From the IMG/VR virus record IMGVR_UViG_3300027141_000003, positions 1 to 64,000 of that record: 64,000 nucleotides of DNA. One strand, written 5' to 3'. The translations under genes and the position numbers were made by a program. Source of the stretch: a virus. Position 1 is the stretch's first letter. Each line of letters begins with the position of its first letter. Below are positions 1 to 40,934 of the stretch, piece by piece. Under the pieces are notes generated by a model that was not told where the DNA came from, did not search any database, and saw only the letters and a program-made list of their open reading frames with translations.

Positions 1-29
1 TTTGGATTTACTGGCTAGTAATGTGAAAA

Positions 30-51
30 TGTCAGTGGGTTCGTGTATAAT
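30..51 (+). promoter_or_regulatory. PafBC-type (RecA-NDp) promoter TGTCAG-N10-TATAAT
   Basis: TGTCAG TGGGTTCGTG TATAAT, followed by the AACGAAAG leader and ORF 87. Confidence 0.8.
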
Positions 52-86
52 TCCATACATAACAACAAACGAAAGAAGGTCTGCCA

Positions 87-293
87 ATGGCTACCAAACT
101 ATACACAATCGAAAGCCTACTTGTAGGAAAAAACTATCGCTCAAACTCTCGCCACTTTTCAGGCGAAATTGTTTCTGCTGAACACCGCCCAGAAATTTGG
201 TATGGTGAAAAAACTGAAGCCTATCTAATCGAAATTCGTGCTGGTGGCTTGCGAAATAAATTTGCAACAATCGCAGTAAAGGTTGGTGAATAA
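87..293 (+). CDS. hypothetical early protein
   Basis: ORF with promoter and GAAGG RBS. Confidence 0.75.
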   Translation: MATKLYTIESLLVGKNYRSNSRHFSGEIVSAEHRPEIWYGEKTEAYLIEIRAGGLRNKFATIAVKVGE

Positions 294-295
294 TA

Positions 296-421
296 ATGGG
301 ATACATCGAAATTTTCCGAATGGACAACGAGGGTGCTGGCTGGGTAGATTTATCCGAAGCAACACCCGATGAATTATTCAACATCGAATTAGGATTATTA
401 GAGGAAGGTGCGTTCGAATGA
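296..421 (+). CDS. small acidic hypothetical protein (41 aa)
   Basis: MGYIEIFRMDNEGAGWVDL..., closely packed with its neighbours; below the ORF-track cutoff. Confidence 0.6.
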   Translation: MGYIEIFRMDNEGAGWVDLSEATPDELFNIELGLLEEGAFE

Positions 422-543
422 ACTTAGACGAATTCAAAAAACACGTGTTAGAAACACGTCAGGCAAGCAAGGCGGAAGCCTTGTCAGTGCTATCTGCTAC
501 AATTACAACTTCAACAAACGAAAGGGAAAACCTAAATGGCTAA
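418..543 (+). CDS. small hypothetical protein whose 3' end encodes the next promoter
   Basis: MNLDEFKKHVLETRQASKAEALSVLSATI...; ATGA overlap. Confidence 0.55.
   Translation: MNLDEFKKHVLETRQASKAEALSVLSATITTSTNERENLNG
482..503 (+). promoter_or_regulatory. PafBC-type promoter
   Basis: TGTCAG-N10-TACAAT. Confidence 0.75.
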
Positions 544-679
544 AATGAAACAACTACTTGATGAAATTATAAATTGCGATTTATGTAATGGTAAAGGCTG
601 GCAATTTTTTGGCAACGCTACTGAATACGATGTAGAGGCTTGCGAATGTAATCCTAATGAATTAGAGGTAAATTACTAA
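536..679 (+). CDS. small Cys-rich (zinc-finger-like) protein
   Basis: CDLCNGKG...CEC; AACGAAAGGG RBS. Confidence 0.6.
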   Translation: MAKMKQLLDEIINCDLCNGKGWQFFGNATEYDVEACECNPNELEVNY

Positions 680-807
680 TGAGCGAAATTGCTGGAATGT
701 GGATTTGCGATAATTGCGATACTCTCGCCATTGTGTCAGTGGAAACTGATACAATACTTGTAACACAATGTAAATGCGTAACTAACGAAAGGGAAACTAA
801 TGTATAA
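679..807 (+). CDS. small Cys-rich protein containing an embedded promoter
   Basis: CDNC...CKC; TAATG overlap. Confidence 0.55.
   Translation: MSEIAGMWICDNCDTLAIVSVETDTILVTQCKCVTNERETNV
734..755 (+). promoter_or_regulatory. PafBC-type promoter
   Basis: TGTCAG-N10-TACAAT. Confidence 0.75.
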
Positions 808-1003
808 AATAACTTGCGCCTATGATAGCAACGCTCCACACTGGTCTGCCGAATACGAAAACGAATTCGGTGCGTGGGAAAGTTTTTTCCGTTTTACCGA
901 TTGGGGAATGGCTAACGATTACTCAACTGTAAATATATCAACGCCAACTGGCAAAATGTATACAAAGGTTTTTTATCGTAGCGGAATGGTGGCAGTAAGA
1001 TGA
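800..1003 (+). CDS. hypothetical early protein
   Basis: ORF with AACGAAAGGG RBS. Confidence 0.7.
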   Translation: MYKITCAYDSNAPHWSAEYENEFGAWESFFRFTDWGMANDYSTVNISTPTGKMYTKVFYRSGMVAVR

Positions 1004-1191
1004 TGACCCGTAAAGATTATGTTGCAACCGCAGAAATTCTAAAGTATGCAAGCAATAAAATTCACCCCGCTGTTTTTTCTAAAGTCGTAAATGATTTCGC
1101 TGAAATGTTTGCAATTGATAATGAAAGATTTGATGTAAAACGATTTCACGAAGCGAGTGGATATAATGTTCCTAACTTCACTTCAAGATAA
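1000..1191 (+). CDS. hypothetical phage protein (MTRKDY...NERFD..RF type)
   Basis: ATGA overlap; motif common in small phage proteins. Confidence 0.7.
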   Translation: MMTRKDYVATAEILKYASNKIHPAVFSKVVNDFAEMFAIDNERFDVKRFHEASGYNVPNFTSR

Positions 1192-1297
1192 AGTAAAACG
1201 CATTCAGGAATTGCGTCGCAGTAATGCGGCGCAACCTGTTCGCAATAAAAAAAAATACACACGCAAAATAAAACATAAAAATAAATTTGATCAATAA
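1166..1297 (+). CDS. small basic protein with ArfA-like KKKYTRKIKHK motif
   Basis: MFLTSLQDKVKRIQELRRSNAAQPVRNKKKYTRKIKHKNKFDQ, translated by hand. Confidence 0.5.
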   Translation: MFLTSLQDKVKRIQELRRSNAAQPVRNKKKYTRKIKHKNKFDQ

Positions 1298-1315
1298 AAT
1301 TAATTTGTCGACAAA

Positions 1316-1375
1316 GCCCGCAGAGCTACGGGGTCGGGCGTGTCGTTACGGGTGTGATCTAAAACACCCTGAAAT
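1316..1375 (+). repeat. early-region fixed-geometry repeat, copy 1 of 9 (GCCCGCAG...GGG-N13-TTACG-N16-CCCTGAAAT)
   Basis: Other copies have TTACG-like blocks at 2334, 4215, 5520, 7377, 9923, 11143, 11192 and 11360. Confidence 0.8.
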
Positions 1376-1395
1376 CCTGCGTGTCAATTAGATAA

Positions 1396-1417
1396 TGTCG
1401 GTCCATTCTGTTATACT
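1396..1417 (+). promoter_or_regulatory. PafBC-type promoter
   Basis: TGTCGG-N10-TATACT. Confidence 0.8.
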
Positions 1418-1445
1418 TACAACCTTACCAACGAAAGGCCAACTA

Positions 1446-2165
1446 ATGAAATTGAAACGCTCTAATGATAGAAAGGTGGCTAACCTTGTCACAAAAAATG
1501 GAAAGCAAGCCGCAATTGCGAACACGTTCGGCCTACCTGCAGGAAAAGACTTTTCTTGTCCTGGTGCAACGTCTATCTGTGAGACTGTTTGCTACGCAGG
1601 CAAATTGGAAAAACTATATAAGGCAGTAAAGGCTAATCTTTTACACAACTGGGAATTGTTACGCAATGCAGACAATGACACAATGGTGCGCCTATTAGAT
1701 GAGATGATTGTTGATTTTGTTGCTGATTGTGATAAGAAGAATGCGCCTAAGTTATTCCGTATCCACTGGGACGGAGATTTCTTCAATGATACTTATACTT
1801 ATGCCTGGAAGACTGTTATCGAAAATCATTCCGATATTCAATTTTGGGTTTATACACGTGTAAAGTCTGCAGCGCTTATTCTAAAGGATGTATCTAATCT
1901 ATCTCTTTACTATTCCACCGACGATGAGAATAAAGAAATCGGTCACGAACTAAAAGTAAACGAAGGTATTCGCCTTGCTTACTTAGGCAAAACATTCGCC
2001 GTAACCGAAAGCACAATGAAAGAATTGACGGGCAAGCCTGGTGCAAAATGTCCTGAGAATATGAAATCAATTCCACTAATTAGCAATGCAGGTTCTGCTT
2101 GTGTATCTTGTGGCTTGTGTGTTTATGGTAAAGCAGACATTCGATTTAGCGCAACTAAAAAATAA
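1446..2165 (+). CDS. GP88-like phage protein (Cys-cluster, radical-SAM-related fold)
   Basis: CPGATSICETVCYA, FRIHWDGDF and C-terminal CP...CxxCxxC; start moved to the ATG after the RBS. Confidence 0.75.
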   Translation: MKLKRSNDRKVANLVTKNGKQAAIANTFGLPAGKDFSCPGATSICETVCYAGKLEKLYKAVKANLLHNWELLRNADNDTMVRLLDEMIVDFVADCDKKNAPKLFRIHWDGDFFNDTYTYAWKTVIENHSDIQFWVYTRVKSAALILKDVSNLSLYYSTDDENKEIGHELKVNEGIRLAYLGKTFAVTESTMKELTGKPGAKCPENMKSIPLISNAGSACVSCGLCVYGKADIRFSATKK

Positions 2166-2177
2166 GGAGAAATAAAA

Positions 2178-2300
2178 ATGGCCGAATTAAAATATTTAAA
2201 TGCGTTGCTAGCATCTGTTGTTGGTACTCCTGATCAAGCAAAAGCTGCAAAAGAATATTTAGCAGAAGTAGATCCCGACATATGGGGCCAGGAGGAGTAA
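2178..2300 (+). CDS. small hypothetical protein (40 aa)
   Basis: AAGGAG RBS; MAELKYLNALL... Confidence 0.55.
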   Translation: MAELKYLNALLASVVGTPDQAKAAKEYLAEVDPDIWGQEE

Positions 2301-2383
2301 AAGGCCCGCAGTACTGCGGGGTCGGGCGTGTCGTTAAGGATGTGATAATAATCACCCTGGAATTTTGGGCGGGTTGCCTAAAA

Positions 2384-2405
2384 TGTCAGTAGGATGTGTT
2401 ATACT
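2384..2405 (+). promoter_or_regulatory. PafBC-type promoter
   Basis: TGTCAG-N10-TATACT. Confidence 0.8.
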
Positions 2406-2433
2406 TCCATTATCCAACAACGAAAGGCTACAA

Positions 2434-2658
2434 ATGTCTAATCAAATTAAAGTTCCACACTCCGTAGTATTCGAGGCCATTATTGACCTTGATAAAATAC
2501 CTGCTAACTTACTTCCTGCATTACTAAAACTAAATGAAACAGATTTACTTACTATGTGTAAGGAAGCAACACTACACGCTCTTACTCAATCTAATTTATT
2601 GCAAACCGCTAATGAGTTTAATACTTGGGCTGAAGTAACTATCAAGGAAGGGGAATAA
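2434..2658 (+). CDS. hypothetical early protein
   Basis: Start follows the AACGAAAGG RBS. Confidence 0.7.
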   Translation: MSNQIKVPHSVVFEAIIDLDKIPANLLPALLKLNETDLLTMCKEATLHALTQSNLLQTANEFNTWAEVTIKEGE

Positions 2659-2660
2659 TA

Positions 2661-2930
2661 ATGGGAAGCATAACTGCATTAGGTATTCAAGATAGCGTGT
2701 TAGATTTAGAAACACAATTAGCCTATCACTTACAGGGTAATCATTACCCACCCGTTCCACTTTCTATGGTGCAACCTTGCATAGATGCTATTGACGCATA
2801 CTATGATGAGGATTTTGATCGACAGATAAAGATGCCTGAAGGCGTATCTTATAAAGGATTAGATACAGCACCTGCCTCCGCAATTATTGACCAACACCAC
2901 CTAGAGTTTTGGCTACCTGAGTGTGATTAG
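2661..2930 (+). CDS. hypothetical protein (HLQGNHYPPVP motif)
   Basis: ORF with RBS. Confidence 0.75.
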   Translation: MGSITALGIQDSVLDLETQLAYHLQGNHYPPVPLSMVQPCIDAIDAYYDEDFDRQIKMPEGVSYKGLDTAPASAIIDQHHLEFWLPECD

Positions 2931-2937
2931 TATCACA
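2922..2937. promoter_or_regulatory. CRP/GlxR-like box TGTGA-N6-TCACA (perfect)
   Basis: TGTGATTAGTATCACA. Confidence 0.65.
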
Positions 2938-2974
2938 CAATAACTTTCTCAAATAATGAGATACGGATACTAAA

Positions 2975-2996
2975 TGTCGGTGGTATCCGCTATAAT
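2975..2996 (+). promoter_or_regulatory. PafBC-type promoter
   Basis: TGTCGG-N10-TATAAT. Confidence 0.8.
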
Positions 2997-3025
2997 ACTA
3001 CTACCAACCAAACGAAAGGAAACAA

Positions 3026-3184
3026 ATGACAAACGCAACACTAGAGGTAGGCAAGTCCTACACAACCACTCAAAGTGGTATCACAGGAATAATCAAGTCG
3101 GTAGATACTCTGCCTAACGGCACAAGTCGTATCCTGCTTGATGTAGAAGGCAAGGAACGCTGGACAAGCGCAACTGCCAACTAA
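3026..3184 (+). CDS. small beta-barrel (SH3/KOW-like) protein
   Basis: MTNATLEVGKSYTTTQSGITGIIKSV...; strong RBS. Confidence 0.65.
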   Translation: MTNATLEVGKSYTTTQSGITGIIKSVDTLPNGTSRILLDVEGKERWTSATAN

Positions 3185-3289
3185 GGAGGCACACACCACT
3201 AATCGGGTGCTAAGCCACGAAACAGGGACAGTTTTGAGAGTGTTCTAGTCCAATGTCGTAAGTAAGAACTCTCCACCTTCGGGTGGAAA

Positions 3290-3311
3290 TGTCAGACCCC
3301 CCTGCTATACT
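3290..3311 (+). promoter_or_regulatory. PafBC-type promoter
   Basis: TGTCAG-N10-TATACT, preceded by a C(TTCG)G hairpin. Confidence 0.75.
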
Positions 3312-3346
3312 ATCCATAACAACAACCAACGAAAGGTAATAAATAA

Positions 3347-3763
3347 ATGAGCAGACAAATCACAGTAAAGGTCGCAACGACCAAAGTAATCAAGGCACTA
3401 GAAACTCGTCTAGCAACGCTAGAAAAAGACTATGCTTCACAAGAAGCAAAAGAAGCAAAGTTTCAGAAATCAGTAGAAGCGTGGCGCAAGGAAATTGGTA
3501 AGTGGGCTATTGCCAACTTCTCAAAGGCTGAGAACCTTCGCACAAACTATCGTGCTTGGAACAACACTCTCAATGTTGATTTTGACATTATCACAAAGGA
3601 AGGCAACTTCCCTACTGAACCTCAAAAAGATTTTGAGCAAATCCATCAGCACAGTTATCGTGAGATGAAAGAGGACATTACAAATGCTCTCACAATTCTC
3701 AAAATGACAGATGAGGAATTAGTCAATGCTTCTACAATGAAGCAGATTGCTAAGTATCTCTAA
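3347..3763 (+). CDS. hypothetical coiled-coil early protein
   Basis: ORF with promoter and RBS. Confidence 0.8.
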   Translation: MSRQITVKVATTKVIKALETRLATLEKDYASQEAKEAKFQKSVEAWRKEIGKWAIANFSKAENLRTNYRAWNNTLNVDFDIITKEGNFPTEPQKDFEQIHQHSYREMKEDITNALTILKMTDEELVNASTMKQIAKYL

Positions 3764-3811
3764 ATAGGTTTTGGGGGGTTAGCACACAAAGTCTAGACAC
3801 CTAAACCCAAA

Positions 3812-3838
3812 CAACCTGAGTAAGTTGCCAAACTGCTC
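3812..3838 (+). ncRNA. candidate 27-nt H-type pseudoknot, copy 1
   Basis: CAAC-CT-GAGTA-A-GTTG-CCAAAC-TGCTC; covarying copies at 5367 and 28962(-). Confidence 0.55.
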
Positions 3839-3850
3839 ACCCTTTGGGGC

Positions 3851-3880
3851 TAGACAAACTCTAACTCCAAATGCTATAAT
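3851..3880 (+). promoter_or_regulatory. sigma-A-type promoter
   Basis: TAGACA-N18-TATAAT with TG extension. Confidence 0.6.
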
Positions 3881-3907
3881 TAAAATCCCTACTAACAAAG
3901 GAACAAA

Positions 3908-4150
3908 ATGAAAAATCGTTATCGTGTAGAAATTTATGACGAAAACAAGTTAAATGATTTAACTATCTATTCTGAGCAAGGTGTCGATAAGGAATACTTA
4001 ACTGAATTAGTATTTTCTAATCTCCGCCGTTTTAACGGAACAATTCGTGCTTACGTTTATGATAATCTAAAGAAAAAGAAAATCACAGCGCTATTTTTAC
4101 CAGAAGAATTTATTCCCAAGAAAACAAACTTAACTAATCTAGTTGGCTAA
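3908..4150 (+). CDS. hypothetical protein
   Basis: ORF with AAAGGA RBS. Confidence 0.7.
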   Translation: MKNRYRVEIYDENKLNDLTIYSEQGVDKEYLTELVFSNLRRFNGTIRAYVYDNLKKKKITALFLPEEFIPKKTNLTNLVG

Positions 4151-4202
4151 AAAGTTGCAGCGATCTTCTCTTTCGCTGCAGCTGGCCCGCAGAGCTGCGG
4201 GG

Positions 4203-4232
4203 TTATCCACAGGGTTACGAGAGTTATCCACA
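4203..4232 (+). promoter_or_regulatory. two perfect DnaA boxes (TTATCCACA), 21 bp apart
   Basis: 4203-4211 and 4224-4232. Confidence 0.65.
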
Positions 4233-4245
4233 ATCCCTGGAAATT

Positions 4246-4261
4246 TGTGATAATGATCACA
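4246..4261. promoter_or_regulatory. CRP/GlxR-like box (perfect)
   Basis: TGTGATAATGATCACA. Confidence 0.65.
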
Positions 4262-4292
4262 TCACCCAATTCGGACATATTGTATCTAATCC

Positions 4293-4321
4293 TAGACAAT
4301 GTCAGTGGCAGATGTTATACT
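4293..4321 (+). promoter_or_regulatory. dual promoter: TAGACA -35 plus PafBC-type TGTCAG-N10-TATACT
   Basis: TAGACAATGTCAGTGGCAGATGTTATACT. Confidence 0.8.
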
Positions 4322-4350
4322 GAATCTAACAACCAATCGAAAGGAATAAA

Positions 4351-5358
4351 ATGGCTCATAATCTAGAAATGGAAAACGGCGAAGTTGCTTTTGCTCTTCG
4401 TGGTGCTCCTGCTTGGCACAATCTAGCAAATCGCATCTTTACAAAAGATGAGGAAGTTACAACTAGTCTAATGCTTGAAGAGGCAAAATTGGCTAATTGG
4501 AATGTTCGCTTATCACCATTGACTGACCACATTTCAGAATCTTGGAATGATGTATCTCAGGCATCTCTCGTCATTCGTGACAACCCATTCAACAAGGGAA
4601 TCGATGTTCTCGCAACTGTCGGCAAGCGTTACAAGCCTGTTCAGAATGAAGAATTGTTTGCATTCGCTGATGCAATTCACGATGCCAATGCTGATTGCCG
4701 TTGGGAATCTGCTGGCTCACTAAAAAAGGGTAAAGTTGTTTTCGGAACTGTGGACATTCCCCGCACAATGGTTCTTGACCCACAAGGCGCTAACGATGAG
4801 ACAAAACTTTATCTTATCGTATGGACATCACACGATGGTTCTGTTGCTGTTCAAGCAGCCGTTACACCTGTTCGTGTAGTATGCCAAAACACGCTAAACC
4901 TTGCAATGAAGAATGCTAAGCAATCTTTCAAGATTCGCCACACGCAATCTGTTGAAGGTCGCATTCAAGTTGCTCGTGAAACTCTTGGGCTTGCTCTTGG
5001 ATACTTTGATGAATTCGAAGTTCAAGCAAAAGCGCTTTACTCACAAGCAATCACCGATGCTGAATTCTCTAAGTTGATTCAGACAATCTATCCTAAGCCA
5101 GATAAAGATGCAGCAAAAGTTGCTCTTACTAAGTGGGAGAATAAGGTTGTTCTAATTGATGACCTTTATCATAACTCACCAACTAACGCTACAATCAAGG
5201 GAACTAAGTGGGGTGCGTTCAATGCACTAACTGAGCGCCTTGATTATTATCGTTCAGGTCGTGGCAATTCTGAAACACTAATGGCTGGTGCTTCAGGCTT
5301 TGACCCAATTCTCACCGCAGAAAAAAATAAGTTGTATCGAATGGTTGCAACTTTCTAA
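4351..5358 (+). CDS. DUF932/DUF945-family phage/plasmid protein
   Basis: MAHN..., AWH, YKPVQN, SHDGS, RVVCQNTL and TKWGAFNALTE motifs. Confidence 0.85.
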   Translation: MAHNLEMENGEVAFALRGAPAWHNLANRIFTKDEEVTTSLMLEEAKLANWNVRLSPLTDHISESWNDVSQASLVIRDNPFNKGIDVLATVGKRYKPVQNEELFAFADAIHDANADCRWESAGSLKKGKVVFGTVDIPRTMVLDPQGANDETKLYLIVWTSHDGSVAVQAAVTPVRVVCQNTLNLAMKNAKQSFKIRHTQSVEGRIQVARETLGLALGYFDEFEVQAKALYSQAITDAEFSKLIQTIYPKPDKDAAKVALTKWENKVVLIDDLYHNSPTNATIKGTKWGAFNALTERLDYYRSGRGNSETLMAGASGFDPILTAEKNKLYRMVATF

Positions 5359-5366
5359 ATAATAAA

Positions 5367-5393
5367 AATCCTAGGCACGATTTAAAACTGCCC
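5367..5393 (+). ncRNA. candidate pseudoknot, copy 2 (immediately 5' of tRNA-Asp)
   Basis: AATC-CT-AGGCA-C-GATT-TAAAAC-TGCC. Confidence 0.5.
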
Positions 5394-5397
5394 GCAA

Positions 5398-5471
5398 GAT
5401 CTCTTAGCTCAGTTGGTTAGAGCGCTACCCTGTCACGGTAGAGGTCACGGGTTCAAGTCCCGTAGGGGTCG
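5398..5471 (+). tRNA. tRNA-Asp (GTC)
   Basis: Cloverleaf: acceptor GATCTCT/AGGGGTC, anticodon arm CTACC-CTGTCAC-GGTAG, TTCAAGT T-loop; CCA not encoded. Confidence 0.92.
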
Positions 5472-5559
5472 CATCTCAAGATATGAGACGCCCGCAGACC
5501 TGAAGGCCAAATGTCCGTTTTACGGCTTTTATAAAAAAACCCCTGAAAGCTATTGTATA

Positions 5560-5581
5560 TGTCAGTGGGGCCTGGTACAAT
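5560..5581 (+). promoter_or_regulatory. PafBC-type promoter (leaderless, ATG 7 nt downstream)
   Basis: TGTCAG-N10-TACAAT-7nt-ATG. Confidence 0.75.
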
Positions 5582-5588
5582 TCTCTTT

Positions 5589-6254
5589 ATGACCAACGAA
5601 CTAGTATCAACTAAATATACATTTGCCTGTGACCCAGACGAATGCGATGTACTAATAGAACTAACATCATCTGACGGATTCGGATTCCCGTCGGGTGTGA
5701 CTGAAATCACTTGTCCGTGTGGCCGTAAGCCAGTCTTATTGTCAGTGGTCAATGCTACAATTGCTTCAACAACCCAAACGAAAGAGGAAAAAATGGAAGA
5801 GACAACAACACCTGCAGTAACAGTTCCTGATACATATAACCCTAATCTATTGGTAACTTACAAAGTTATCCGTGGTTACTCAGATGCTGAATATGCAACT
5901 GACAAGGTCACATCAATTGAATGGGACCTACACAATGCACGTCAAGCACAGAAGCACAATAGTGTTTACCAAGGCAAGATTGACACAGTCAAAGATATTA
6001 TCACTGAAGCATATGCTGATTCAGATGACCAAGAAACACTTCGTGCAATTGCTGAAGCGCTTTCAATTGAACTAATCAGAGAATTTGAATTTACCGCATC
6101 TATCGAGGTTAGCGGAACATATTCATATAACATTCTTGAAAATGATTATGACTTAGACCTTGAGTCAGAAGTTACAGATGCCCTCTTTGCTGATTCACAG
6201 AACGGTAACATTGAAATTACCGACCAAGAAGTATGCAACGTTAGTGAGCGCTAA
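5589..6254 (+). CDS. acidic hypothetical protein with N-terminal Cys motif; second in-frame start at 5793
   Basis: CDPDEC...CPCG N-terminus; internal promoter 5740-5761 and RBS before ATG 5793. Confidence 0.7.
   Translation: MTNELVSTKYTFACDPDECDVLIELTSSDGFGFPSGVTEITCPCGRKPVLLSVVNATIASTTQTKEEKMEETTTPAVTVPDTYNPNLLVTYKVIRGYSDAEYATDKVTSIEWDLHNARQAQKHNSVYQGKIDTVKDIITEAYADSDDQETLRAIAEALSIELIREFEFTASIEVSGTYSYNILENDYDLDLESEVTDALFADSQNGNIEITDQEVCNVSER
5740..5761 (+). promoter_or_regulatory. PafBC-type promoter inside a CDS
   Basis: TGTCAG-N10-TACAAT. Confidence 0.75.
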
Positions 6255-6466
6255 TGTACTTTGAGTTGACTGCTCCCGATAGGCTATCTATGGAGATGGC
6301 TTATTGGGATGCACAAATGATTGGGCTGGACCCAACTGCATTATCACCGTTGACATTCAACATCGGAACTGGTAGTATTGAGAAGGTGAGTCGCATTCGT
6401 GATAAGTATAACTTAATTGAAAGTTATACATCAGACTACGAGCCAACAGGATACACAAGGAGATAA
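6254..6466 (+). CDS. hypothetical protein
   Basis: TAATG coupling. Confidence 0.7.
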   Translation: MYFELTAPDRLSMEMAYWDAQMIGLDPTALSPLTFNIGTGSIEKVSRIRDKYNLIESYTSDYEPTGYTRR

Positions 6467-6467
6467 G

Positions 6468-6614
6468 ATGTCAGATTACAAAGATGGTTTTGATGACGGG
6501 TATAAATTTGCTCGTGAAGAGATTATGGAAAAGTTATCAGAGATTGATATCGCAGACATAGACTCTTGGATCTTAGACCGTCTTTCAGAAATGATCGAAG
6601 GTGGGAAACTATGA
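6468..6614 (+). CDS. small acidic hypothetical protein
   Basis: AGGAG RBS; MSDYKDGFDDGY. Confidence 0.65.
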   Translation: MSDYKDGFDDGYKFAREEIMEKLSEIDIADIDSWILDRLSEMIEGGKL

Positions 6615-6805
6615 TGGCTGAATGGCTTAAGTGTGATCAATGTGCAGCTCAGGCTATGTGGGAAGCTAAAAAGGATACAGCATCCCTTTATTTCTGTGGC
6701 CACCACAAAAATAAACAGGGCGAGCCACTTGTGGACTGGGCCCAAGAAATGATACAATTGCTTAACTACGAGCAAGAACAACAACTAGAAAAGGCGGAAA
6801 AGTAA
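6611..6805 (+). CDS. small zinc-binding protein (CxxC...FCGHH)
   Basis: Motif typical of small actinobacterial/actinophage proteins. Confidence 0.7.
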   Translation: MMAEWLKCDQCAAQAMWEAKKDTASLYFCGHHKNKQGEPLVDWAQEMIQLLNYEQEQQLEKAEK

Positions 6806-7209
6806 TGGGAGATAGAGCAAACTTCGTATTCGTGCAGCCAAACGGTCAATCGATTGTTTTGTACGGACACTGGGCTGGACATCAAATGCTACAACGTTTA
6901 GCAGAATCAGCAGTTAAGGCACAGGGCCGTTGGTCGGACCCTTCATATGCAACACGCATTACAATCAGCAATATGATTGGCGAAGGCTGGGCAATGGAGA
7001 CAGGCTGGGGATTATCTGTAAATGAAATTGCAGACAACGAGCACAAGATTCCTGTAATTGATTTTCAGCAACAGACATTTAGTCTTCACGAAGAGGCGCC
7101 GTATTCAGATGAATCTAATAAGATTCGTGGGATGAAGAATGAGGCAATCTTTACACAGGACCTAAGTAACTTCTGTGAGAAGTACTCAGACCAATTGGTT
7201 CGAGTATAA
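6805..7209 (+). CDS. hypothetical protein (MGDRAN...LYGHWAG)
   Basis: Coupled ORF. Confidence 0.8.
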   Translation: MGDRANFVFVQPNGQSIVLYGHWAGHQMLQRLAESAVKAQGRWSDPSYATRITISNMIGEGWAMETGWGLSVNEIADNEHKIPVIDFQQQTFSLHEEAPYSDESNKIRGMKNEAIFTQDLSNFCEKYSDQLVRV

Positions 7210-7244
7210 CTAATTAATCTAAAGGTGCCTCTATAGTCTTCGCA

Positions 7245-7342
7245 GGCCAGGGGTTAACTAAAGCATCGGATTTTACTTTCGTTGGTTACCGATAGCAGCC
7301 TTAGTAAAGAACCCTGGATCATTAACGTGTCCAGGGCTTTTT
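7245..7342 (+). ncRNA. candidate antisense sRNA/attenuator with loop complementary to the early-gene leader, followed by an intrinsic terminator
   Basis: Stem ATCGG/CCGAT encloses CTTTCGTTGGTT (reverse complement of AACCAACGAAAG); terminator CCCTGGA/TCCAGGG-CTTTTT. Confidence 0.55.
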
Positions 7343-7470
7343 GCTGCCCGCAACAGCTGAGGGGAATAAAGTCTATTTACGGATAACATATATAAATCCT
7401 GGAAATTGGACATATTGGACATATATCTATCTGATCATAGCTTTTGTGGTGTGAATCACACGATATTGCA

Positions 7471-7500
7471 TAGACAAATGTCAGTGGTCCATTATATAAT
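7471..7500 (+). promoter_or_regulatory. PafBC-type promoter with TAGACA -35
   Basis: TAGACAAA TGTCAG-N10-TATAAT. Confidence 0.8.
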
Positions 7501-7527
7501 TAGAACCTATCAACGAAAGGATATAAA

Positions 7528-8319
7528 ATGCCAAATTGGTGTTACAACACATTAACTATCCAAGGACCTAAGTCTGAGGTAGATATGATTAAAGATAGAT
7601 TGAATGCTCCATTTACATTAGCACAAGAGACATATGGTATGGGTGATATTAGTCTTTCAGGATTCCCCACCAAAATTGAACAGGTAAGTTATTCTAATCC
7701 TGTCTTTGCTTTCTTTAATATCCACTCATATAAAGATGAGGGAATTACTGATGAGGAATATGCCTGCCAGCCTTCTCGTGGTAACTATGATATACAAAAT
7801 GACCCTGATTGGTTCCGCAAGTCTGTTGAGTTCGCTAAGACTCAGAAGGATTGGTATTCTTGGAATAATTCTAATTGGGGAACTAAATGGGATGTAGCCG
7901 TCCGTGACGGTGATGAATATCCTGAAACAGAATTGCTTGAATATAAATCAGAAGGTGATGACAACTGGGTTATCTATAAGTATGAGACTGCTTGGTCACC
8001 TGCTGTAACTATCTTAACTAAACTATCTAATCTTGTTCCTAACTGCCTGCTTACTTTAGAGTTTGAGGAAGAGACAGGTTGGGGTGGGGAATATGAGATT
8101 GTTCGTGGTGAAGTAAAAGAACTAGTTGAATATGAAAATCGTTGTAATGAATGTGATTCATATGACACATTGTCTTATTGTGAGAATGACTGCGGTGAAT
8201 TCTGTTCTGAATGCGAGCACGGCTCTTGGAGAGACGAAGAGGCTATGAAAGAATGTCAGACCCATATGCTAACATTACCTATTAAGACCTACACACAGGA
8301 AGAGGCACTAAATGGCTAG
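7528..8319 (+). CDS. DUF1281/YubB ferredoxin-like domain protein
   Basis: MPNWCYN, WGTKWD and TAWSP motifs; Cys-rich C-terminus. Confidence 0.8.
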   Translation: MPNWCYNTLTIQGPKSEVDMIKDRLNAPFTLAQETYGMGDISLSGFPTKIEQVSYSNPVFAFFNIHSYKDEGITDEEYACQPSRGNYDIQNDPDWFRKSVEFAKTQKDWYSWNNSNWGTKWDVAVRDGDEYPETELLEYKSEGDDNWVIYKYETAWSPAVTILTKLSNLVPNCLLTLEFEEETGWGGEYEIVRGEVKELVEYENRCNECDSYDTLSYCENDCGEFCSECEHGSWRDEEAMKECQTHMLTLPIKTYTQEEALNG

Positions 8320-8536
8320 TTTCTTAGAAGATGTAAATCAAATGGTAATTGACGCTTGCTATCAAGATATAGCAGAACAATTACTTGAAGATTGGATTAA
8401 TAATAATCTTGACGAAGGGCAATATTATGCAGATAAGCAATTTGCTGAAATGTCAGGAGATAAGTTTGTTCAATCTGAATTTAATAAGTTCTATGAACTT
8501 AAAGAGGGAGATGAGGGTTACATTGACATACTATAA
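8312..8536 (+). CDS. acidic hypothetical protein
   Basis: Overlapping ORF. Confidence 0.7.
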   Translation: MASFLEDVNQMVIDACYQDIAEQLLEDWINNNLDEGQYYADKQFAEMSGDKFVQSEFNKFYELKEGDEGYIDIL

Positions 8537-8693
8537 CTTTGTAATTAGATTACACGGTGCAGTTGGCGCTAATAGCGAACAAGAAGCAATTGAGAAAATC
8601 AATGGACACTTAGATGACCTAGGTGATGTTGAAAGTATTATTAAGTATGACTTAGGTTGGCCTGAGACATCTTGGGAATTGGAGGAAGCATAA
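8523..8693 (+). CDS. hypothetical protein
   Basis: Probable TTG start after GAGGG. Confidence 0.55.
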   Translation: MTYYNFVIRLHGAVGANSEQEAIEKINGHLDDLGDVESIIKYDLGWPETSWELEEA

Positions 8694-8875
8694 TGTTAGG
8701 ATATACGGAATCTGATCTAAATAGGATGATTAATGCTATACACGATTCAAAGCTTTTTTATCTTAGGACCCCGTCAGATTTAATGGACAAGGAGCCTTTG
8801 AGGAAAGACTTGGAAGACGCTGTTAGTTTCTTGCAAGGTTTGTGGGCGGAGGGTTACTTTGACTACACAAACTAA
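8693..8875 (+). CDS. hypothetical protein
   Basis: GGAGG RBS; TAATG coupling. Confidence 0.65.
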   Translation: MLGYTESDLNRMINAIHDSKLFYLRTPSDLMDKEPLRKDLEDAVSFLQGLWAEGYFDYTN

Positions 8876-9044
8876 ATCTAGTAAGTTCATAGAGTATATG
8901 AAGATACATCTAATTAGTCTTAACCAGGACTTAGAGGGTGATTATAATGTTCAATCTAAGATTAATATCCAGGGACAAATTATGGCAACCGAACATTTAT
9001 TGTCAGTGGCGACTGATATAATGAATGAAAACGAAAGGGTCTAA
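8859..9044 (+). CDS. hypothetical protein with embedded promoter
   Basis: Ends ...LSVATDIMNENERV. Confidence 0.6.
   Translation: MTTQTKSSKFIEYMKIHLISLNQDLEGDYNVQSKINIQGQIMATEHLLSVATDIMNENERV
9001..9022 (+). promoter_or_regulatory. PafBC-type promoter
   Basis: TGTCAG-N10-TATAAT. Confidence 0.75.
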
Positions 9045-9045
9045 T

Positions 9046-9324
9046 ATGGAAACTCTATATAAGGATGATGAACTTCCTTTGCACCTCCAGCGTTTAGTTG
9101 ACGCAGGTGTTAATGGATTAGATATAATGCACGGCGAACTAAAGAATCTAATGTTGATTGCCGAAGAGCAATTGGCTTGGGCTCAGGCAATTGAAGATGA
9201 GACCGAAGAGGCAATGGATTCAATGGCACGTACAGAGGCGGAAGGACGACTAGATACTCTAGTTGAACTATATAAACTAACATATGCTTTATCATTTGCG
9301 ATTGGAGCACGTAATGAAGCCTGA
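9046..9324 (+). CDS. hypothetical protein
   Basis: AACGAAAGGG RBS. Confidence 0.7.
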   Translation: METLYKDDELPLHLQRLVDAGVNGLDIMHGELKNLMLIAEEQLAWAQAIEDETEEAMDSMARTEAEGRLDTLVELYKLTYALSFAIGARNEA

Positions 9325-9634
9325 AGATAAAGATAAACTAAACGAATGTTTGGCTATTCTAGATAAGACGGACCTAGGTCTATCCTTAGTTTGGCTATGG
9401 ACTTGGTCTACCATTAACAACATATTTGAGGATGAGACGTACAGGCAGAACTGCACCATAGATGAGATGTGGGACCACCTCTGTGAGGCTGTAGAGGCGG
9501 GCCAGGGCTTCTCTCTGGAGTACGGGGCAGAACAGCACAATGATGACGTCCTTGACTGGATGTTAAGCCGTGACTACATTGTTGACTCAATGTTTGAAGA
9601 AGAGGAAGAGGAGGAAGAAGATGAAGATGAGTGA
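9314..9634 (+). CDS. acidic hypothetical protein with poly-Glu tail
   Basis: Overlapping ORF. Confidence 0.7.
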   Translation: MKPEDKDKLNECLAILDKTDLGLSLVWLWTWSTINNIFEDETYRQNCTIDEMWDHLCEAVEAGQGFSLEYGAEQHNDDVLDWMLSRDYIVDSMFEEEEEEEEDEDE

Positions 9635-9914
9635 CACCTACATCAATGATCAGTTAAGTAAGGCCCAAGCTTTGTTATGGTCTGGATCTCTACACGAGGT
9701 AGACGAAGCACATAACATTGTATCTAATCTAATACAAGATAGGTTGGGCAATGAGTAAATATAAAGTAAAGATAGAGATAGTAGGGGGAGTCCCATATGT
9801 TCTTGAATGCCCACCTGAAGTAGATGTTGAGATTAAACAGGTTAATCATTGGCAGAGGTGGCGTGAACAACAAAAACTAATTAAAGATAAGTTGGTAAAG
9901 GAAGGAGGGCAAAA

Positions 9915-10148
9915 ATGACTCATTATGAGCCGAGCTTAGAAATCCTGGAAGTTGAGTATTCTTGTAGTCCAGGAGGAATTGATCTATTTGAAGTCTATGA
10001 TAAATCTGATATACCTTTATCTGTCCCAATATATGAGACAGAGAACTTGACCGATGCGGTCCTATTCTGTTACAATTTAGGTAAAGACTTTACTGTCAGG
10101 ACATTAGCGGAATGGAATGAAAGGGAGTTGGAGTATGCCTCTATATAG
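9915..10148 (+). CDS. hypothetical protein
   Basis: AAGGAGG RBS. Confidence 0.7.
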   Translation: MTHYEPSLEILEVEYSCSPGGIDLFEVYDKSDIPLSVPIYETENLTDAVLFCYNLGKDFTVRTLAEWNERELEYASI

Positions 10149-10335
10149 AGTGTTTGGTACCAAGTATAAAAACTACTACACAATTGTTTCGGCTGCCGAC
10201 GAATATCAAGCAGCGGAGATTGCAAACCTGCGTCCAGAAACTGATTGGGACGCAATTGTTACGGATGACGTCATTGAGGCGACAGACGTATTCTTAGATG
10301 AAGATACCGAGATAGATTTAAATCTCAACATATAG
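10135..10335 (+). CDS. acidic hypothetical protein
   Basis: Overlapping ORF. Confidence 0.65.
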   Translation: MPLYRVFGTKYKNYYTIVSAADEYQAAEIANLRPETDWDAIVTDDVIEATDVFLDEDTEIDLNLNI

Positions 10336-10346
10336 GCGGAAAGCTA

Positions 10347-10375
10347 TTTACAATTTCGTAAATAGTTGATATAAT
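10347..10375 (+). promoter_or_regulatory. sigma-A-type promoter
   Basis: TTTACA-N17-TATAAT. Confidence 0.65.
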
Positions 10376-10407
10376 AAATATAAACATCTCTTGAAAGGGG
10401 ATCTAAA

Positions 10408-10554
10408 ATGGCAACAAAGCGTGAATATCTAAAGTCACAAGGAATTACAGTTGGCCTACGTGGGCGCTTCTCAGCTGCAGCAGTAAAAGCTCTATCAGAT
10501 GCACAGACCAAGGGCATCACATTCGAGGCGGAAACAAAGTCAGCAAAGAAGTAA
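10408..10554 (+). CDS. Lsr2-like DNA-binding domain protein (48 aa)
   Basis: REYLKSQGITVGLRGRFSAAAV matches the Lsr2 C-terminal RGR AT-hook pattern. Confidence 0.65.
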   Translation: MATKREYLKSQGITVGLRGRFSAAAVKALSDAQTKGITFEAETKSAKK

Positions 10555-10589
10555 CTAATCTATTGTACGATCACGAGGGGCTGGCTAAA

Positions 10590-10611
10590 TGTCAGTCCTT
10601 CGTGCTATAAT
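10590..10611 (+). promoter_or_regulatory. PafBC-type promoter
   Basis: TGTCAG-N10-TATAAT. Confidence 0.75.
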
Positions 10612-10637: not shown

Positions 10638-11048
10638 ATGAAAACCAAAGAAGAGCAAATCGGAGAACTTCTAGCAAATTCAGTAGAAGACCATTTCTTC
10701 AACCCTGCCGCTTTAGGCAGGTATCTAGCAGACCAACCGACATACACCTTAGACCGTGTTATGGAGGTAGTAGCGTGGGTTATAGAGAAGCAGGCAAGAC
10801 GATATGACCGAGAACTGGAAACGGGTGGGGCGATATCAGAAGGTCTTGCTATTGCTTCTAAGTTAGACTTAGTTATAGATAAGATAAGTCGGGAGAATGA
10901 ACTAAAGAATGTCAAATTGCCTATGACTCCAAATCAAAGGCGGGCGTTCATAAAGAGTCTCCCTAAAGAACAAGAACAATCATATAGATACTCTTGGCTA
11001 CACGAAACAAATAATCAATCTAATACATTTGTAAACCAGGGAATGTAA
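10638..11048 (+). CDS. hypothetical protein, last gene of the + block
   Basis: ORF after promoter. Confidence 0.75.
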   Translation: MKTKEEQIGELLANSVEDHFFNPAALGRYLADQPTYTLDRVMEVVAWVIEKQARRYDRELETGGAISEGLAIASKLDLVIDKISRENELKNVKLPMTPNQRRAFIKSLPKEQEQSYRYSWLHETNNQSNTFVNQGM

Positions 11049-11076: not shown

Positions 11077-11113
11077 TTATCCACAGGTTTATCCACAGCC
11101 TGTGGATTTTTTT
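11077..11113 (+). terminator. intrinsic terminator built from DnaA boxes
   Basis: ATCCACAGG/CCTGTGGAT stem plus T-run; TTATCCACA at 11077 and 11089. Confidence 0.65.
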
Positions 11114-13694: not shown

Positions 13695-14041
13695 TTTCTA
13701 TCTTCCCGCCGCACTTTTCTATTCACTATTCTAGGTCAATATCTTCTTCTATATCGAATAAATTATAATCGATATTCCTTAATTGATTAAAGCTAATATA
13801 TGCTAGATATCCCACAATAGCAATACCTGCTGCAAATGCCAAAAGGCTAATTGTTTTGTTATTCATTGTGACAGTCTTCTTCCTGTAGTATTCTATTATA
13901 TAACACTGTCTAGGACATTGTCAATAGCATCGTCTATTGTTTTGTCGTGCTCTTTTGAGCAATTACCGCATTCTTTACACATAAAACTCCAATAAAGATC
14001 CCCACCAGCCCTGCGTTTGCAGGGCAGTGGGGAATACTTAA

Positions 14042-20963: not shown

Positions 20964-21273
20964 TAGGCTTGCCCTCCAGCTCGCATCTTACTCCATATGA
21001 CTCAAGCAGTCGCTTGACCTTTGTTACATAATCAATAACCATTTCTTTCTTGGTTCCCTCAAACTGTAAAAAATTGTCTTCATATAGTCGTAGTGCTAAA
21101 AACTGTGGATACATTACTATGTCCATTAAGAGCATAGAAGGCTTCTTTATTTGATGAACAGCCTTTTTCATCTCTGGGGTATAGAATACTGGCTTATTTG
21201 GTTCGCCAGTCCATTCGTTGACTCCGTATTTAAAATGCTCTTTTAGCCTGTCCTGGCTCTTATCAATAAACAT
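20947..21273 (-). CDS. hypothetical protein
   Basis: Coupled ORF. Confidence 0.7.
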   Translation of the reverse strand: MFIDKSQDRLKEHFKYGVNEWTGEPNKPVFYTPEMKKAVHQIKKPSMLLMDIVMYPQFLALRLYEDNFLQFEGTKKEMVIDYVTKVKRLLESYGVRCELEGKPSERVL

Positions 21274-21616
21274 TTTTCTTCTTTAACTTCTTCCATAGGT
21301 CTTGATCTTTATGCAGATTCTTAGACTTATCAATTGATCCAGATGTCAAGTATACACCACCCCATACACCGTATTCATTTCCTTCAACTCCAGATTCATA
21401 GCACATGCTAATCACTGGACAACTTAAACACATCTCGTCTATGTTCTTTGCTATGTTAGAATCGGATTCATACTTCTCATAAAACAAATCAGTATTCATT
21501 CCTCTGCATATAGCAAGATGAAACCAATCTAAAGAATCTTGATCTATTCCTAAACTACTTAAAATGTCTGACATACTTTGTGGGCAGCTTCCATATTCCA
21601 TTGTTGGCAACTGCAA
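21263..21616 (-). CDS. whiB: WhiB-family Fe-S transcription regulator
   Basis: AIC...FY...CLSCPVISMC...YGVWGG. Confidence 0.9.
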   Translation of the reverse strand: MQLPTMEYGSCPQSMSDILSSLGIDQDSLDWFHLAICRGMNTDLFYEKYESDSNIAKNIDEMCLSCPVISMCYESGVEGNEYGVWGGVYLTSGSIDKSKNLHKDQDLWKKLKKKNVY

Positions 21617-23964: not shown

Positions 23965-24147
23965 CTATTCTGAGTTTCTATTTCTGATAGGACTAGTTAC
24001 TATCCATAGAGCAGTAGTAGCTATAATGCCATAACCGACTATATCTTTAGCACTTCCGTCCAAAACAACCCAAGCAATAAACATACCAAGAAGGGTCCAT
24101 GCTTGGTCTACCATATCTTTTAGGATATTCTTTATTATTCTTACCAT
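23965..24147 (-). CDS. small two-TM membrane protein
   Basis: WTLLGMFIAWVVLDG. Confidence 0.65.
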   Translation of the reverse strand: MVRIIKNILKDMVDQAWTLLGMFIAWVVLDGSAKDIVGYGIIATTALWIVTSPIRNRNSE

Positions 24148-29548: not shown

Positions 29549-29896
29549 CTAGTCGTTTGGAATATCTTTATTAAATTCCATTTCGATTAAACCTTTTTCT
29601 TTAGCTATTTTTTGACCTTCTGGACTAATATGAAAAGTTGCCTCTAGGTTCTCATCGTATTCAACTTCAACCAAGCCCTGCTCATACAGTTCAATCAAAG
29701 ACCTATCTACATATTCAGTATGAGATTGCCACAATTCTGGAGCTAAAGTCTCTGCGTCTTCGCTAATAGAATAAATAAGCTCTCCGCTTTCATCTACGCC
29801 CTCTAAACTAACGGCACCTATTTCTATATAATACGCCAGTCTATCTGAGTCATGCTGATCTTCTTCTTCTGTCATATTGCCTCCCCTGTGCAACAA
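29549..29896 (-). CDS. acidic winged-helix-like hypothetical protein
   Basis: ORF track; true start probably MTEEE, since the annotated start overlaps the tRNA. Confidence 0.65.
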   Translation of the reverse strand: MLHRGGNMTEEEDQHDSDRLAYYIEIGAVSLEGVDESGELIYSISEDAETLAPELWQSHTEYVDRSLIELYEQGLVEVEYDENLEATFHISPEGQKIAKEKGLIEMEFNKDIPND

Positions 29897-29962
29897 GTAG
29901 GACTTGAACCTACGATTACCGAATTATGAGTTCGGGGCTTTAACCAACTAAGCTATTGTTGC
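29889..29962 (-). tRNA. tRNA with CAT anticodon (elongator Met or Ile2)
   Basis: GCAACAA/TTGTTGC acceptor, CCGAA-CTCATAA-TTCGG, GTAGG-TTCAAGT-CCTAC; own TATAAT upstream. Confidence 0.9.
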
Positions 29963-37147: not shown

Positions 37148-37290
37148 CGTTTTTTAACCAACCCAAACTTGTCTAATGCTCTCTGTATAGTCATAGCAGA
37201 AACCTTACACTCTTCGGCAATTTCAGTTACCGTTTTCTTTTGAACAACATATCTTCTATACATCCAGGTCTGGCTTTGATATAGTTTCAT
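37144..37290 (-). CDS. small HTH DNA-binding protein
   Basis: KTVTEIAEECKVSAMTIQRAL, translated by hand. Confidence 0.65.
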   Translation of the reverse strand: MKLYQSQTWMYRRYVVQKKTVTEIAEECKVSAMTIQRALDKFGLVKKR

Positions 37291-39929: not shown

Positions 39930-40934
39930 TTAAGATTTGGCATTAATTGCCTCACGAAGTTCATCCACAACCTTCGGATTGTCTTTAAGATATTGAACTG
40001 CTTTAGCTCTACCTTGAAGTCTTTCTCCATTTACTGTATACCATGCTCCACCCTTTTCTACAACACCACACATTTCTGCAACGTCTAGAGTTTCGCCTAC
40101 ACCATCTACACCAAGAGTTTCCCCTTGGTAATAAAAGTCGTACTGTCCCGATAGATTTGGGGGACCGAGTTTGTTGTAATCAATAATCCAGTTAACTGGC
40201 CTGCCAACTCTTTGTTCAATGATCTTGTCGCCAACTTTAACGCCAGCCTTAATAGCATTCGCCTCAGCCTCAGACGACCAGAGCTTAATGACCGTGGAAG
40301 AAAAGAACTTGACTGCCATGCCACCTGTGGGGATGTGACTAGCATGCATAGATCCAAACTGATTTCGCTGTTGTGAGATGAGTACAAGTAGTGTGTTTTT
40401 GTTTGCATAGTTTAACATCTTGACTGCGTGGGTCATATCCTTTGCTTCAGCGCCGATCTGCTTAGTGTCTTGCAGATCTTTCATTTCATTTCCATCTTTT
40501 TCAAAATAAATTCCTGGCAATAATGCAGATATAGAATCGACAACGATCATATCTACTCCAGCCTCCATAAGTTTTACTCCAACATCAACCATATCGTTAA
40601 CTGTTTTTGCCGAAGAATAAATTAACTTAGATGAGTCTACGCCTAAAGACTCTGCCCATGCCTGATCGTAAGAAGCTTCAGAATCAATCCATGCACAAGT
40701 TTTGCCTTCTTTCTGGGCAATTGCTATCATCTGCAAACAAAAAGAAGATTTCCCAGCAGACTTATTACCCCATACAAGGACCTGTCTGCCATAACCTAGG
40801 CCCCCACGAAGAGCCATGTTTAATCCAATGCTTGGGGTCTTTTGTTTTTCAACAACAACATTTTGTGCTGACTGAACTCTTGCTCTTGTTTTTGGATCTA
40901 GTTTTGCTAGTATATCGTCTAGTGAAATTTTCAT
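39930..40934 (-). CDS. recA: RecA recombinase
   Basis: GNKSAGKS, IDSE, VVDSIS, ISQQR, TGGMAVKF and KGGAWY. Confidence 0.93.
   Translation of the reverse strand: MKISLDDILAKLDPKTRARVQSAQNVVVEKQKTPSIGLNMALRGGLGYGRQVLVWGNKSAGKSSFCLQMIAIAQKEGKTCAWIDSEASYDQAWAESLGVDSSKLIYSSAKTVNDMVDVGVKLMEAGVDMIVVDSISALLPGIYFEKDGNEMKDLQDTKQIGAEAKDMTHAVKMLNYANKNTLLVLISQQRNQFGSMHASHIPTGGMAVKFFSSTVIKLWSSEAEANAIKAGVKVGDKIIEQRVGRPVNWIIDYNKLGPPNLSGQYDFYYQGETLGVDGVGETLDVAEMCGVVEKGGAWYTVNGERLQGRAKAVQYLKDNPKVVDELREAINAKS

Follow-up and report, generated by a model that had tools for sequence, protein, structure and literature searches.

PafBC-type promoters are known in their hosts only as a switch for the hosts' own DNA-repair genes. 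The consensus obtained for PafBC by chromatin immunoprecipitation sequencing (ChIP-seq), tGTCgg(N10)tA(N3)T, has its 5' part at -28 to -23 and lacks a -35 box, and the GTC triplet that PafB reads in it is nearly invariant across actinobacteria (PMC8635444). An older consensus, that of the RecA-NDp promoters, was given as tTGTCRgtg-8nt-TAnnnT (PMC5656591). ChIP-seq, cryo-electron microscopy (cryo-EM), and in vitro transcription link the motif at -26 to PafBC (PMC8635444, PMC11804915), which engages RNA polymerase only once single-stranded DNA (ssDNA) has been bound (PMC11804915). In this study, we describe an array of elements of the same form, TGTCRG followed after 10 nt by a -10 box, in the first 64 kb (the window) of the 109,912-bp IMG/VR virus record IMGVR_UViG_3300027141_000003. 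Our literature search, which did not extend to a paper from 2025 (cited in PMC12848934) on PafBC and resistance to mycobacteriophages, turned up no account of a phage with promoters of the PafBC type.

The 13 TGTCRG-N10-TAYAMT sites of the original prediction were all found, to the nucleotide, where it had put them (Table 1), compared with 0.12 on average, and never more than 2, in shuffled sequence. As predicted, 13 of 13 are on the + strand of the window, and the whole record holds 15 forward and 0 reverse matches in its 109,912 bp; the reversed pattern, scanned as a control over the whole record, has none. Relaxing the -10 box to TAnnnT adds one + strand site, at 8254, and one - strand match, at 21552, the latter being ATG TCA GAC within the open reading frame (ORF) of a WhiB-like protein. 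Since this match falls in coding sequence and its -10 box is poor, we discarded it as a promoter and regard it as probably due to chance. For the array itself, chance or a low-complexity artifact is ruled out by the shuffles, the reversed-pattern control, and the fixed spacing. Downstream of every site except that at 5560 come a short leader, a Shine-Dalgarno (SD) sequence, and a start codon, so the predicted proximity to gene starts is borne out. A canonical -35 box is mostly missing, again as had been proposed: positions -7 to -1 carry little information, and only the sites at 4300 and 7479 also have TAGACA, at 17 to 18 nt.

For a wider view of this anatomy, sites were pooled from five phages, namely, this phage and four near-complete relatives (DnaE 80 to 86% identical). 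The 69 sites so obtained, all on the gene strand, align to the consensus aaTGTCAGTGG-N4-(T)GnTAYAAT, followed by 16 to 20 nt, a AACGAAAGG-type SD, and a start codon, with SD and start codon ~30 nt downstream of the sites. The spacer from TGTCRG to the -10 box is 10 nt in 69/69, with none at 9 or 11 nt. The -10 box is TATAAT or TACAAT in 48 of the 69, TG at -15/-14 (extended -10, TGn) is present in 39, and G at -14 is present in 51; no -35 consensus is visible in the alignment. Neither the extended -10 box nor the palindromes described below had been noted in the original prediction.

To avoid circularity, we also defined units by the -10 box, SD, and start codon only, leaving the upstream element unused. 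TGTCRG then stands exactly at -16 to -11 from the -10 box in 53 of 70 units of the five phages and at the same position in 551 of 900 units drawn from 124 loci across the wider group. The other units of the five phages include a minority with a -35 box (TAGACA, TTTACA, or TTGACA). Among the units found in this way, the T, G, T, and C of TGTC are invariant, and one-mismatch variants are limited to position 5 (A/G in 46, C in 1) and position 6 (3). When the collection was scanned with the 10-nt spacer, at least 119 IMG/VR stretches matched, compared with 6, each with a single match and taken to be chance, in a control scan with a spacer one base longer. Of the matches listed, 118 of 119 have proteins in common with this phage, at G+C contents of 0.34 to 0.50. 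Three contigs (L173, L179, and L188) that have only 3 or 4 proteins in common with it, at 41 to 48% identity, carry 11 to 16 copies of aaTGTCAGTGG-N7-TATAAT. The motif, its rigid geometry, and its link to gene starts are conserved across diverged phages, and on this comparative evidence we take the sites to be real promoters.

The element belongs to one part of the genome. The + strand block that contains it spans ~13 kb, from ~108.2 kb across the record ends to ~11.1 kb, and holds ~40 small genes at a density of about one promoter per one to three genes. The record ends overlap by 127 bp, which suggests that the record is probably a circular assembly and that the block therefore wraps across the junction. 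The 90-kb minus-strand part has the -26 type in none of its 8 units, and it does contain the predicted TTGACA-N16-18-TAnnnT promoters, at 13924, 19063, 21851, 30000, 30638, 46276, 49642, 54428, and 60055. Given this division, the phage has two promoter classes, a -26 type and a TTGACA -35/-10 type. The block is not driven by the -26 type throughout, since it also contains a minority of + strand -35/-10 promoters (3851-3880, 6350-6378, 8523-8551, 10047-10076, and 10347-10375, with TAGACA, TTGACA, or TTTACA), and the promoter types at 3851 and 10347 are kept in relatives.

The likeness to PafBC promoters that had been claimed for motif and geometry extends to both published forms, with A/G at position 5 and with the "gtg" extension; the latter is included in the phage consensus form aaTGTCAGTGG-N7-TAYAAT, TGG being the commonest triplet after the hexamer. 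Among the units defined without the element, the tolerance pattern (only position 5 and rarely position 6) is that of RecA-NDp promoters (TGTCR) and of a GTC readout.

A separate scan of metagenome contigs asked for TGTCRG-N10-TAnnnT and then, at a recA-like distance, a RecA N-terminal motif with A/T-ending codons; that 30 of 30 matches are recA follows from the design of the pattern, and the chance expectation is not negligible. Most of the 30 have an actinobacterial-type RecA N terminus, at G+C contents of 48 to 69%, and the element lies 21 to 39 nt from the recA start codon. RecA from two of these contigs, L116 (51% G+C) and L117 (48%), scores ~605 bits against the mycobacterial RecA structures 1ubc and 1g18, versus ~483 bits against E. 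coli RecA. The recA sites include the phage variants TGG, TGC, TAG, and ACC at nt 7 to 9 of the element, and their -10 boxes are weaker (TAGTGT, TATTCT) and without TGn. Three low-G+C matches (L109, L112, and L134), whose YGKGTVM N terminus and TAnnTTTG-like -7 box look like those of Bacteroidota, were counted as chance. The recA sites show that uncultured actinobacteria of low G+C content (48 to 56%) have the element in front of recA, which is not evidence for the host of this particular phage. In six contigs of 50 to 52% G+C (L106, L111, L116, L118, L126, and L131), recA has TGTCGG(A/C/T)AGCAAAAAGTA(T/A)TCT 31 nt before its ATG, with a leader (...aaatcgaaagagg...) that resembles the AACGAAAGG leader of the phage; these contigs are candidates for the host type of such phages.

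The mycobacterial setting of the original prediction does not hold for the host: the phage, which carries WhiB, is related to Streptomyces phages and has a window of 38% G+C (range, 33 to 44%). What stands of the PafBC reading is the motif, the geometry, and the lack of a detectable phage reader; what falls is the mycobacterial host. The DnaE-type polymerase is 55 to 57% identical to that of Streptomyces phages of the Stanwilliamsviridae, of which this phage is, by sequence, a distant relative; its IMG/VR lineage is uncultured and comprises more than 590 related contigs. An origin among the mycobacteriophages was ruled out by a G+C content of only 33 to 44%, by the absence of a nucleotide match to the window in the phage collection, and by the nearest cultured relatives being Streptomyces phages. 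The recognizable block genes belong to the actinophage families GP88, DUF932, DUF1281_C, and DUF7455, of which GP88 and DUF932 are common to Mycobacterium, Streptomyces, Microbacterium, and Arthrobacter phages. It is from WhiB, these gene families, and DnaE only that we infer an actinobacterial host. That such a host would encode PafB and PafC draws indirect support from WhiB and from the element at actinobacterial-type recA genes in metagenomes. When WhiB was used to scan the genome collection, no actinobacterial match was obtained, the sole hit being 16 residues long and in a metagenome-assembled genome of the Gemmatimonadaceae. No integrase or resolvase was found in the phage, and a temperate lifestyle with damage-induced induction was rejected.

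Upstream of ~44 of the 69 promoters lies a TGTGA-N6-TCACA palindrome, the consensus of actinobacterial Crp/GlxR, with its center 26, 35 to 37, 41, 45 to 46, or 54 to 57 nt before TGTCAG, mostly in 10-bp steps. The block has 7 exact copies of GTGA-N6-TCAC and the other 96 kb a single one, with 0 or 1 at other spacings, and no Crp-type helix-turn-helix (HTH) was detected in six frames of the phage. In L173, L179, and L188, ATAAC-N6-GTTAT-type palindromes are found upstream in place of TGTGA-N6-TCACA. The palindrome thus differs where the -26 element is kept, so that the upstream operator is lineage-specific and the -26 element is not. That distant relatives carry another palindrome suggests that TGTGA-N6-TCACA could instead be the site of a phage regulator. 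Extra GTGTCG or CGACAC elements were seen ~14 to 15, 25 to 27, and 55 nt before TGTCAG (e.g., at 1376-1381 and in L099 to L103), GACAC occurring 12 times versus 3.8 expected and GTGTC 14 times versus 3.5 expected; these may be second sites with a GTC core or parts of hairpins.

A search of the phage in six frames for WYL, HTH_PafC, and Sigma70_r2 domains likewise gave none, the MotA and AsiA families not being among those searched; the only signal was Sigma70_r4_2 at 12 bits (37174-37251), below the cut-off. No DNA-binding family was recognized among the block proteins. Phage-encoded PafBC, WYL, sigma, and Crp proteins were accordingly dropped as readers. With these domains undetected, a phage-encoded activator in place of PafBC, the outcome that the original prediction had named as speaking against it, has become less likely. 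Given that the element is kept despite gene turnover and changed upstream operators, its reader is best placed outside the phage, and the sequence evidence points to a shared, host-level factor.

From these observations we infer that PafBC reads the element, that the block is probably early, and that ssDNA would trigger it; the original idea that injected DNA could itself set off transcription stands on the same footing. We think there is a somewhat better than even chance that the reader is host PafBC acting on RNA polymerase-sigma A. In such a scheme, TGTCRG(TGG) at -28 to -23 would stand in for a -35 box beside a TATAAT or TACAAT -10 box, often with TGn, and host RNA polymerase-sigma A would be adapted by the WYL-domain activator PafBC ("sigma adaptation"). 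The HTH of PafB would read GTC and that of PafC would hold sigma region 4, with PafBC engaging after ssDNA binding. The appearance of ssDNA in the infected cell would then turn the block on or raise its activity, and resected phage ends, replication, host DNA breakdown, and cuts made by defense systems are conceivable sources of this ssDNA. Some PafBC-independent basal firing would be likely with -10 boxes that are near consensus and often extended.

Several points weigh against PafBC as the reader. A near-consensus -10 box with TGn, as in 39/69 sites, can work without an upstream element, so that TGTCRG may not be needed for firing. The Streptomyces relatives drive their equivalent terminal-repeat genes by TAGACA-N18-TAGACT, a promoter of the -35 type. 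The hosts of these cultured relatives do have RecA-NDp promoters, and a host with PafBC therefore does not by itself impose the -26 type of promoter. Moreover, the PafBC promoters of hosts do not fire unless DNA is damaged, an odd property for the promoters of genes needed at once. Finally, the recA scan is biased toward the motif by design, and 3 of its 30 matches look like Bacteroidota.

If the polymerase is redirected by a phage factor that escaped recognition, in the manner of MotA/AsiA, then TGTCAG might be read by a small DNA-binding protein or by WhiB on sigma region 4; the block would in that case be delayed-early or middle, and its likeness to PafBC promoters a matter of convergence or mimicry. 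There is room for such a factor, as most phage proteins are without a family match, and the TTGACA-type promoters could make it first. The phage does encode WhiB, and WhiB-family proteins bind sigma A region 4, but they are not known to read such a sequence, which counts against WhiB in this role. The motif is also specific to the lineage and not present in the Streptomyces relatives. Yet a phage factor would have to match by chance the 6- to 9-nt host consensus, the 10-nt spacing, and the A/G tolerance (PMC5656591), no WYL, PafC-type HTH, or sigma domain was detected, and contigs with hardly any genes in common with this phage keep the element unchanged; we therefore hold this explanation to be improbable. 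A reader might also be dispensable: the sites could be self-sufficient extended -10 promoters of sigma A, with TGTCRG as a site of negative control or titration, bound by a repressor for shut-off or else serving as a decoy array that soaks up PafBC-RNA polymerase and blunts the host damage response on replication. The frequencies of TG at -15/-14 (39/69), of G at -14 (51/69), and of TATAAT or TACAAT (48/69) all fit this idea, as do the weaker -10 boxes without TGn at environmental recA genes, the TAGACA -35 box kept by two promoters, and the palindromic boxes upstream, which indicate that other regulators act here. However, 30/69 sites are without the full TG and TGTCRG is nonetheless rigid in all, which better fits contact with the polymerase than a free operator; a nonpalindromic site of 6 to 9 nt is unusual for a repressor, and the decoy version still requires binding of PafBC. 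Self-sufficient promoters of this kind seem to us an unlikely account. The likeness to PafBC promoters could, lastly, reflect another host factor, such as a different WYL-domain activator of the PafBC/SiwR kind, ~five WYL-domain proteins being present per actinobacterial genome (PMC6789036), or ClgR, once reported for the recA P1 region and mentioned as recognizing P1 (PMC5656591). Against this stand the ChIP-seq, cryo-EM, and in vitro transcription data, which tie both motif and position to PafBC (PMC8635444, PMC11804915), and in the literature searched no other reader of TGTCRG at -26 is described, making this possibility very slight.

The genes of the block are probably early genes, a timing that synteny with cultured relatives supports without proving it: in cultured Streptomyces (BE-type) relatives, the long terminal repeat contains the homologue of the DUF932 gene as its gene 2, and the GP88 family, named after gp88 of phage D29, points the same way, as gp88 lies in the early right arm of L5/D29-type phages. 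The individual promoters and other features are listed in Table 1. The weaker site at 8254 is kept in G001 to G003 as TGTCAGACCCATAGTGTATTAT. The mRNA from the promoter at 5560 is probably leaderless (its ORF encodes 221 aa), and the promoters at 5560 and 5740 may together yield one protein in a long and a short form. An ATG 7 nt past the -10 box, as at 5560 and in two relatives, would be consistent with the transcription start ~7 nt downstream of the -10 box that is characteristic of PafBC promoters.

Table 1. Coordinates of promoters, upstream boxes, and selected genes in the window
Feature	Position	Strand	Remarks
-26/-10 promoter (TGTCAGTGG..TATAAT)	30..51	+	For ORF 87-293; second copy at 109815, within the 127-bp overlap of the record ends
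-26/-10 promoter	482..503	+	For ORF 536-679, then small ORFs
-26/-10 promoter	734..755	+	For ORFs 800-1003 and 1000-1191
-26/-10 promoter	1396..1417	+	For GP88-family gene 1446-2165 (PF17338, 183 bits); homologue, gp88 of phage D29
-26/-10 promoter	2384..2405	+	For ORFs 2434-2658 and 2661-2930
-26/-10 promoter	2975..2996	+	For ORF 3026-3184
-26/-10 promoter, TGTCAGACC variant	3290..3311	+	For ORF 3347-3763; hairpin 3270-3289 upstream
-26/-10 promoter plus TAGACA at -35	4300..4321	+	For DUF932 gene 4351-5358 and tRNA-Asp 5398-5472
-26/-10 promoter	5560..5581	+	ATG 7 nt past -10; ORF 5589-6254; same arrangement in G001 and G002
-26/-10 promoter	5740..5761	+	Within ORF 5589-6254; predicted to drive in-frame start 5793
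-26/-10 promoter plus TAGACA at -35	7479..7500	+	For gene 7528-8319 (DUF1281_C-like)
Weaker 14th promoter, TGTCAGACC..TAACAT	8254..8275	+	For ORF 8312-8536; not in the original prediction
-26/-10 promoter	9001..9022	+	For ORFs 9046-9324 and 9314-9634, then further ORFs
-26/-10 promoter	10590..10611	+	For ORF 10638-11048, final gene of the block
Strong intrinsic terminator	11079..11107	+	11-bp stem, T run; closes the + strand block
GTGA-N6-TCAC box	2342..2355		CRP/GlxR-type, upstream of promoter 2384
Like boxes	1354-1367 (1 mismatch), 2923-2936, 4247-4260, 5697-5710, 7446-7459 (1 mismatch)		Also at genome positions 108323, 108721, and 109752
WhiB-like gene	21263..21616	-	PF02467, 44.8 bits; four Cys, GVWGG turn; marks an actinobacterial host
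Phage RecA gene	39930..40934	-	Within the minus-strand replication block using -35/-10 promoters, not -26 promoters

Other replication and packaging genes of the phage encode DnaB, primase, and the terminase large subunit; in a search for RecA homologues, the matches listed were filled by phage relatives. The tRNA-Asp gene (GTC) lies within the small-gene block, 3' of the DUF932 gene, and a tRNA-Met gene (CAT; 29888-29962) lies within the minus-strand block. A 921-aa protein (24141-26906, - strand) contains a proline-rich stretch resembling extensin and matches TerB weakly; it belongs to no PHROG family, and tblastn against the phage collection gave no match.

In conclusion, the block of this uncultured lake phage probably plugs into the PafBC switch of its host. 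A bolder proposal, which we put forward tentatively and regard as possible rather than probable, is that abundant lake phages use the ssDNA alarm PafBC of the host to ignite their takeover block. The block would stay quiet until ssDNA appears, for example at the resected ends of the entering genome or after a cut by a defense nuclease, ~15 promoters would then fire together with the lineage-specific palindromes as a second input, and on replication the array would also draw PafBC-polymerase away from the repair regulon of the host. If true, this would be the first known case of a phage program that depends on sigma adaptation by a WYL activator of the host. PafBC-type promoters in front of the small-gene block of an abundant group of freshwater phages would in themselves mean that phages can recruit an activator of the host with copies of the promoter that it reads, without a sigma factor or activator of their own. 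They would also link the timing of phage genes to ssDNA sensing by a WYL-domain protein, from a family of domains to which the control of many anti-phage systems falls as well, and would allow uncultured phages to be assigned to actinobacterial hosts from promoter sequence alone. Since the motif matches that of the published in vitro system of Mycobacterium smegmatis, the claim can be tested without a culture of the host.

In this phage, as in the Stanwilliamsviridae, there is a one-strand block of small genes, with promoters about as numerous as the genes and short leaders of the CGAAAGG type, and the DUF932 and DnaE proteins are 50% and 55 to 57% identical, respectively, to those of Samisti12 and BillNye; their promoters, in contrast, are TAGACA-N18-TAGACT. 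TGTCRG-N10 is at background in these two phages (0 and 3 hits; none in BillNye), which rules out inheritance of the motif from the Streptomyces relatives. In Samisti12 (1-10000; L105), every one of the ~20 small genes in the terminal repeat has its own TAGACA-N18-TAGACT promoter and a common ...agacatcgaaaggg leader, and TGTCGGGCCCGGACA-type palindromes lie upstream, adjoining terminator hairpins. The middle promoters of T4, with a MotA box at -30 and MotA/AsiA, resemble the array in that an element near the -10 box replaces the -35 box and a factor bridges DNA and sigma region 4, a parallel to T4 MotA/AsiA that the PafBC authors draw as well (PMC8635444). T4, however, encodes its own factors for its own box, whereas here the box is the site of a host regulator and no phage factor is detectable. 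Prophage induction by LexA/RecA sensing likewise ties a phage program to the DNA-damage signal of the host, but through cleavage of a repressor in a lysogen, whereas the array would depend on a positive activator at many lytic promoters in a phage without integrase or resolvase. The nearest match is to the PafBC promoters themselves, with TGTCRG(tg) at -28 to -23, 10 nt before TAnnnT, no -35 box, an invariant TGTC, and the same variants at nt 7 to 9 as at environmental recA genes. The phage array differs from them in its density (~15 promoters in 13 kb), in serving small genes and not DNA-repair genes, and in having -10 boxes near consensus, often with TGn, and, in most cases, a phased palindromic box upstream.

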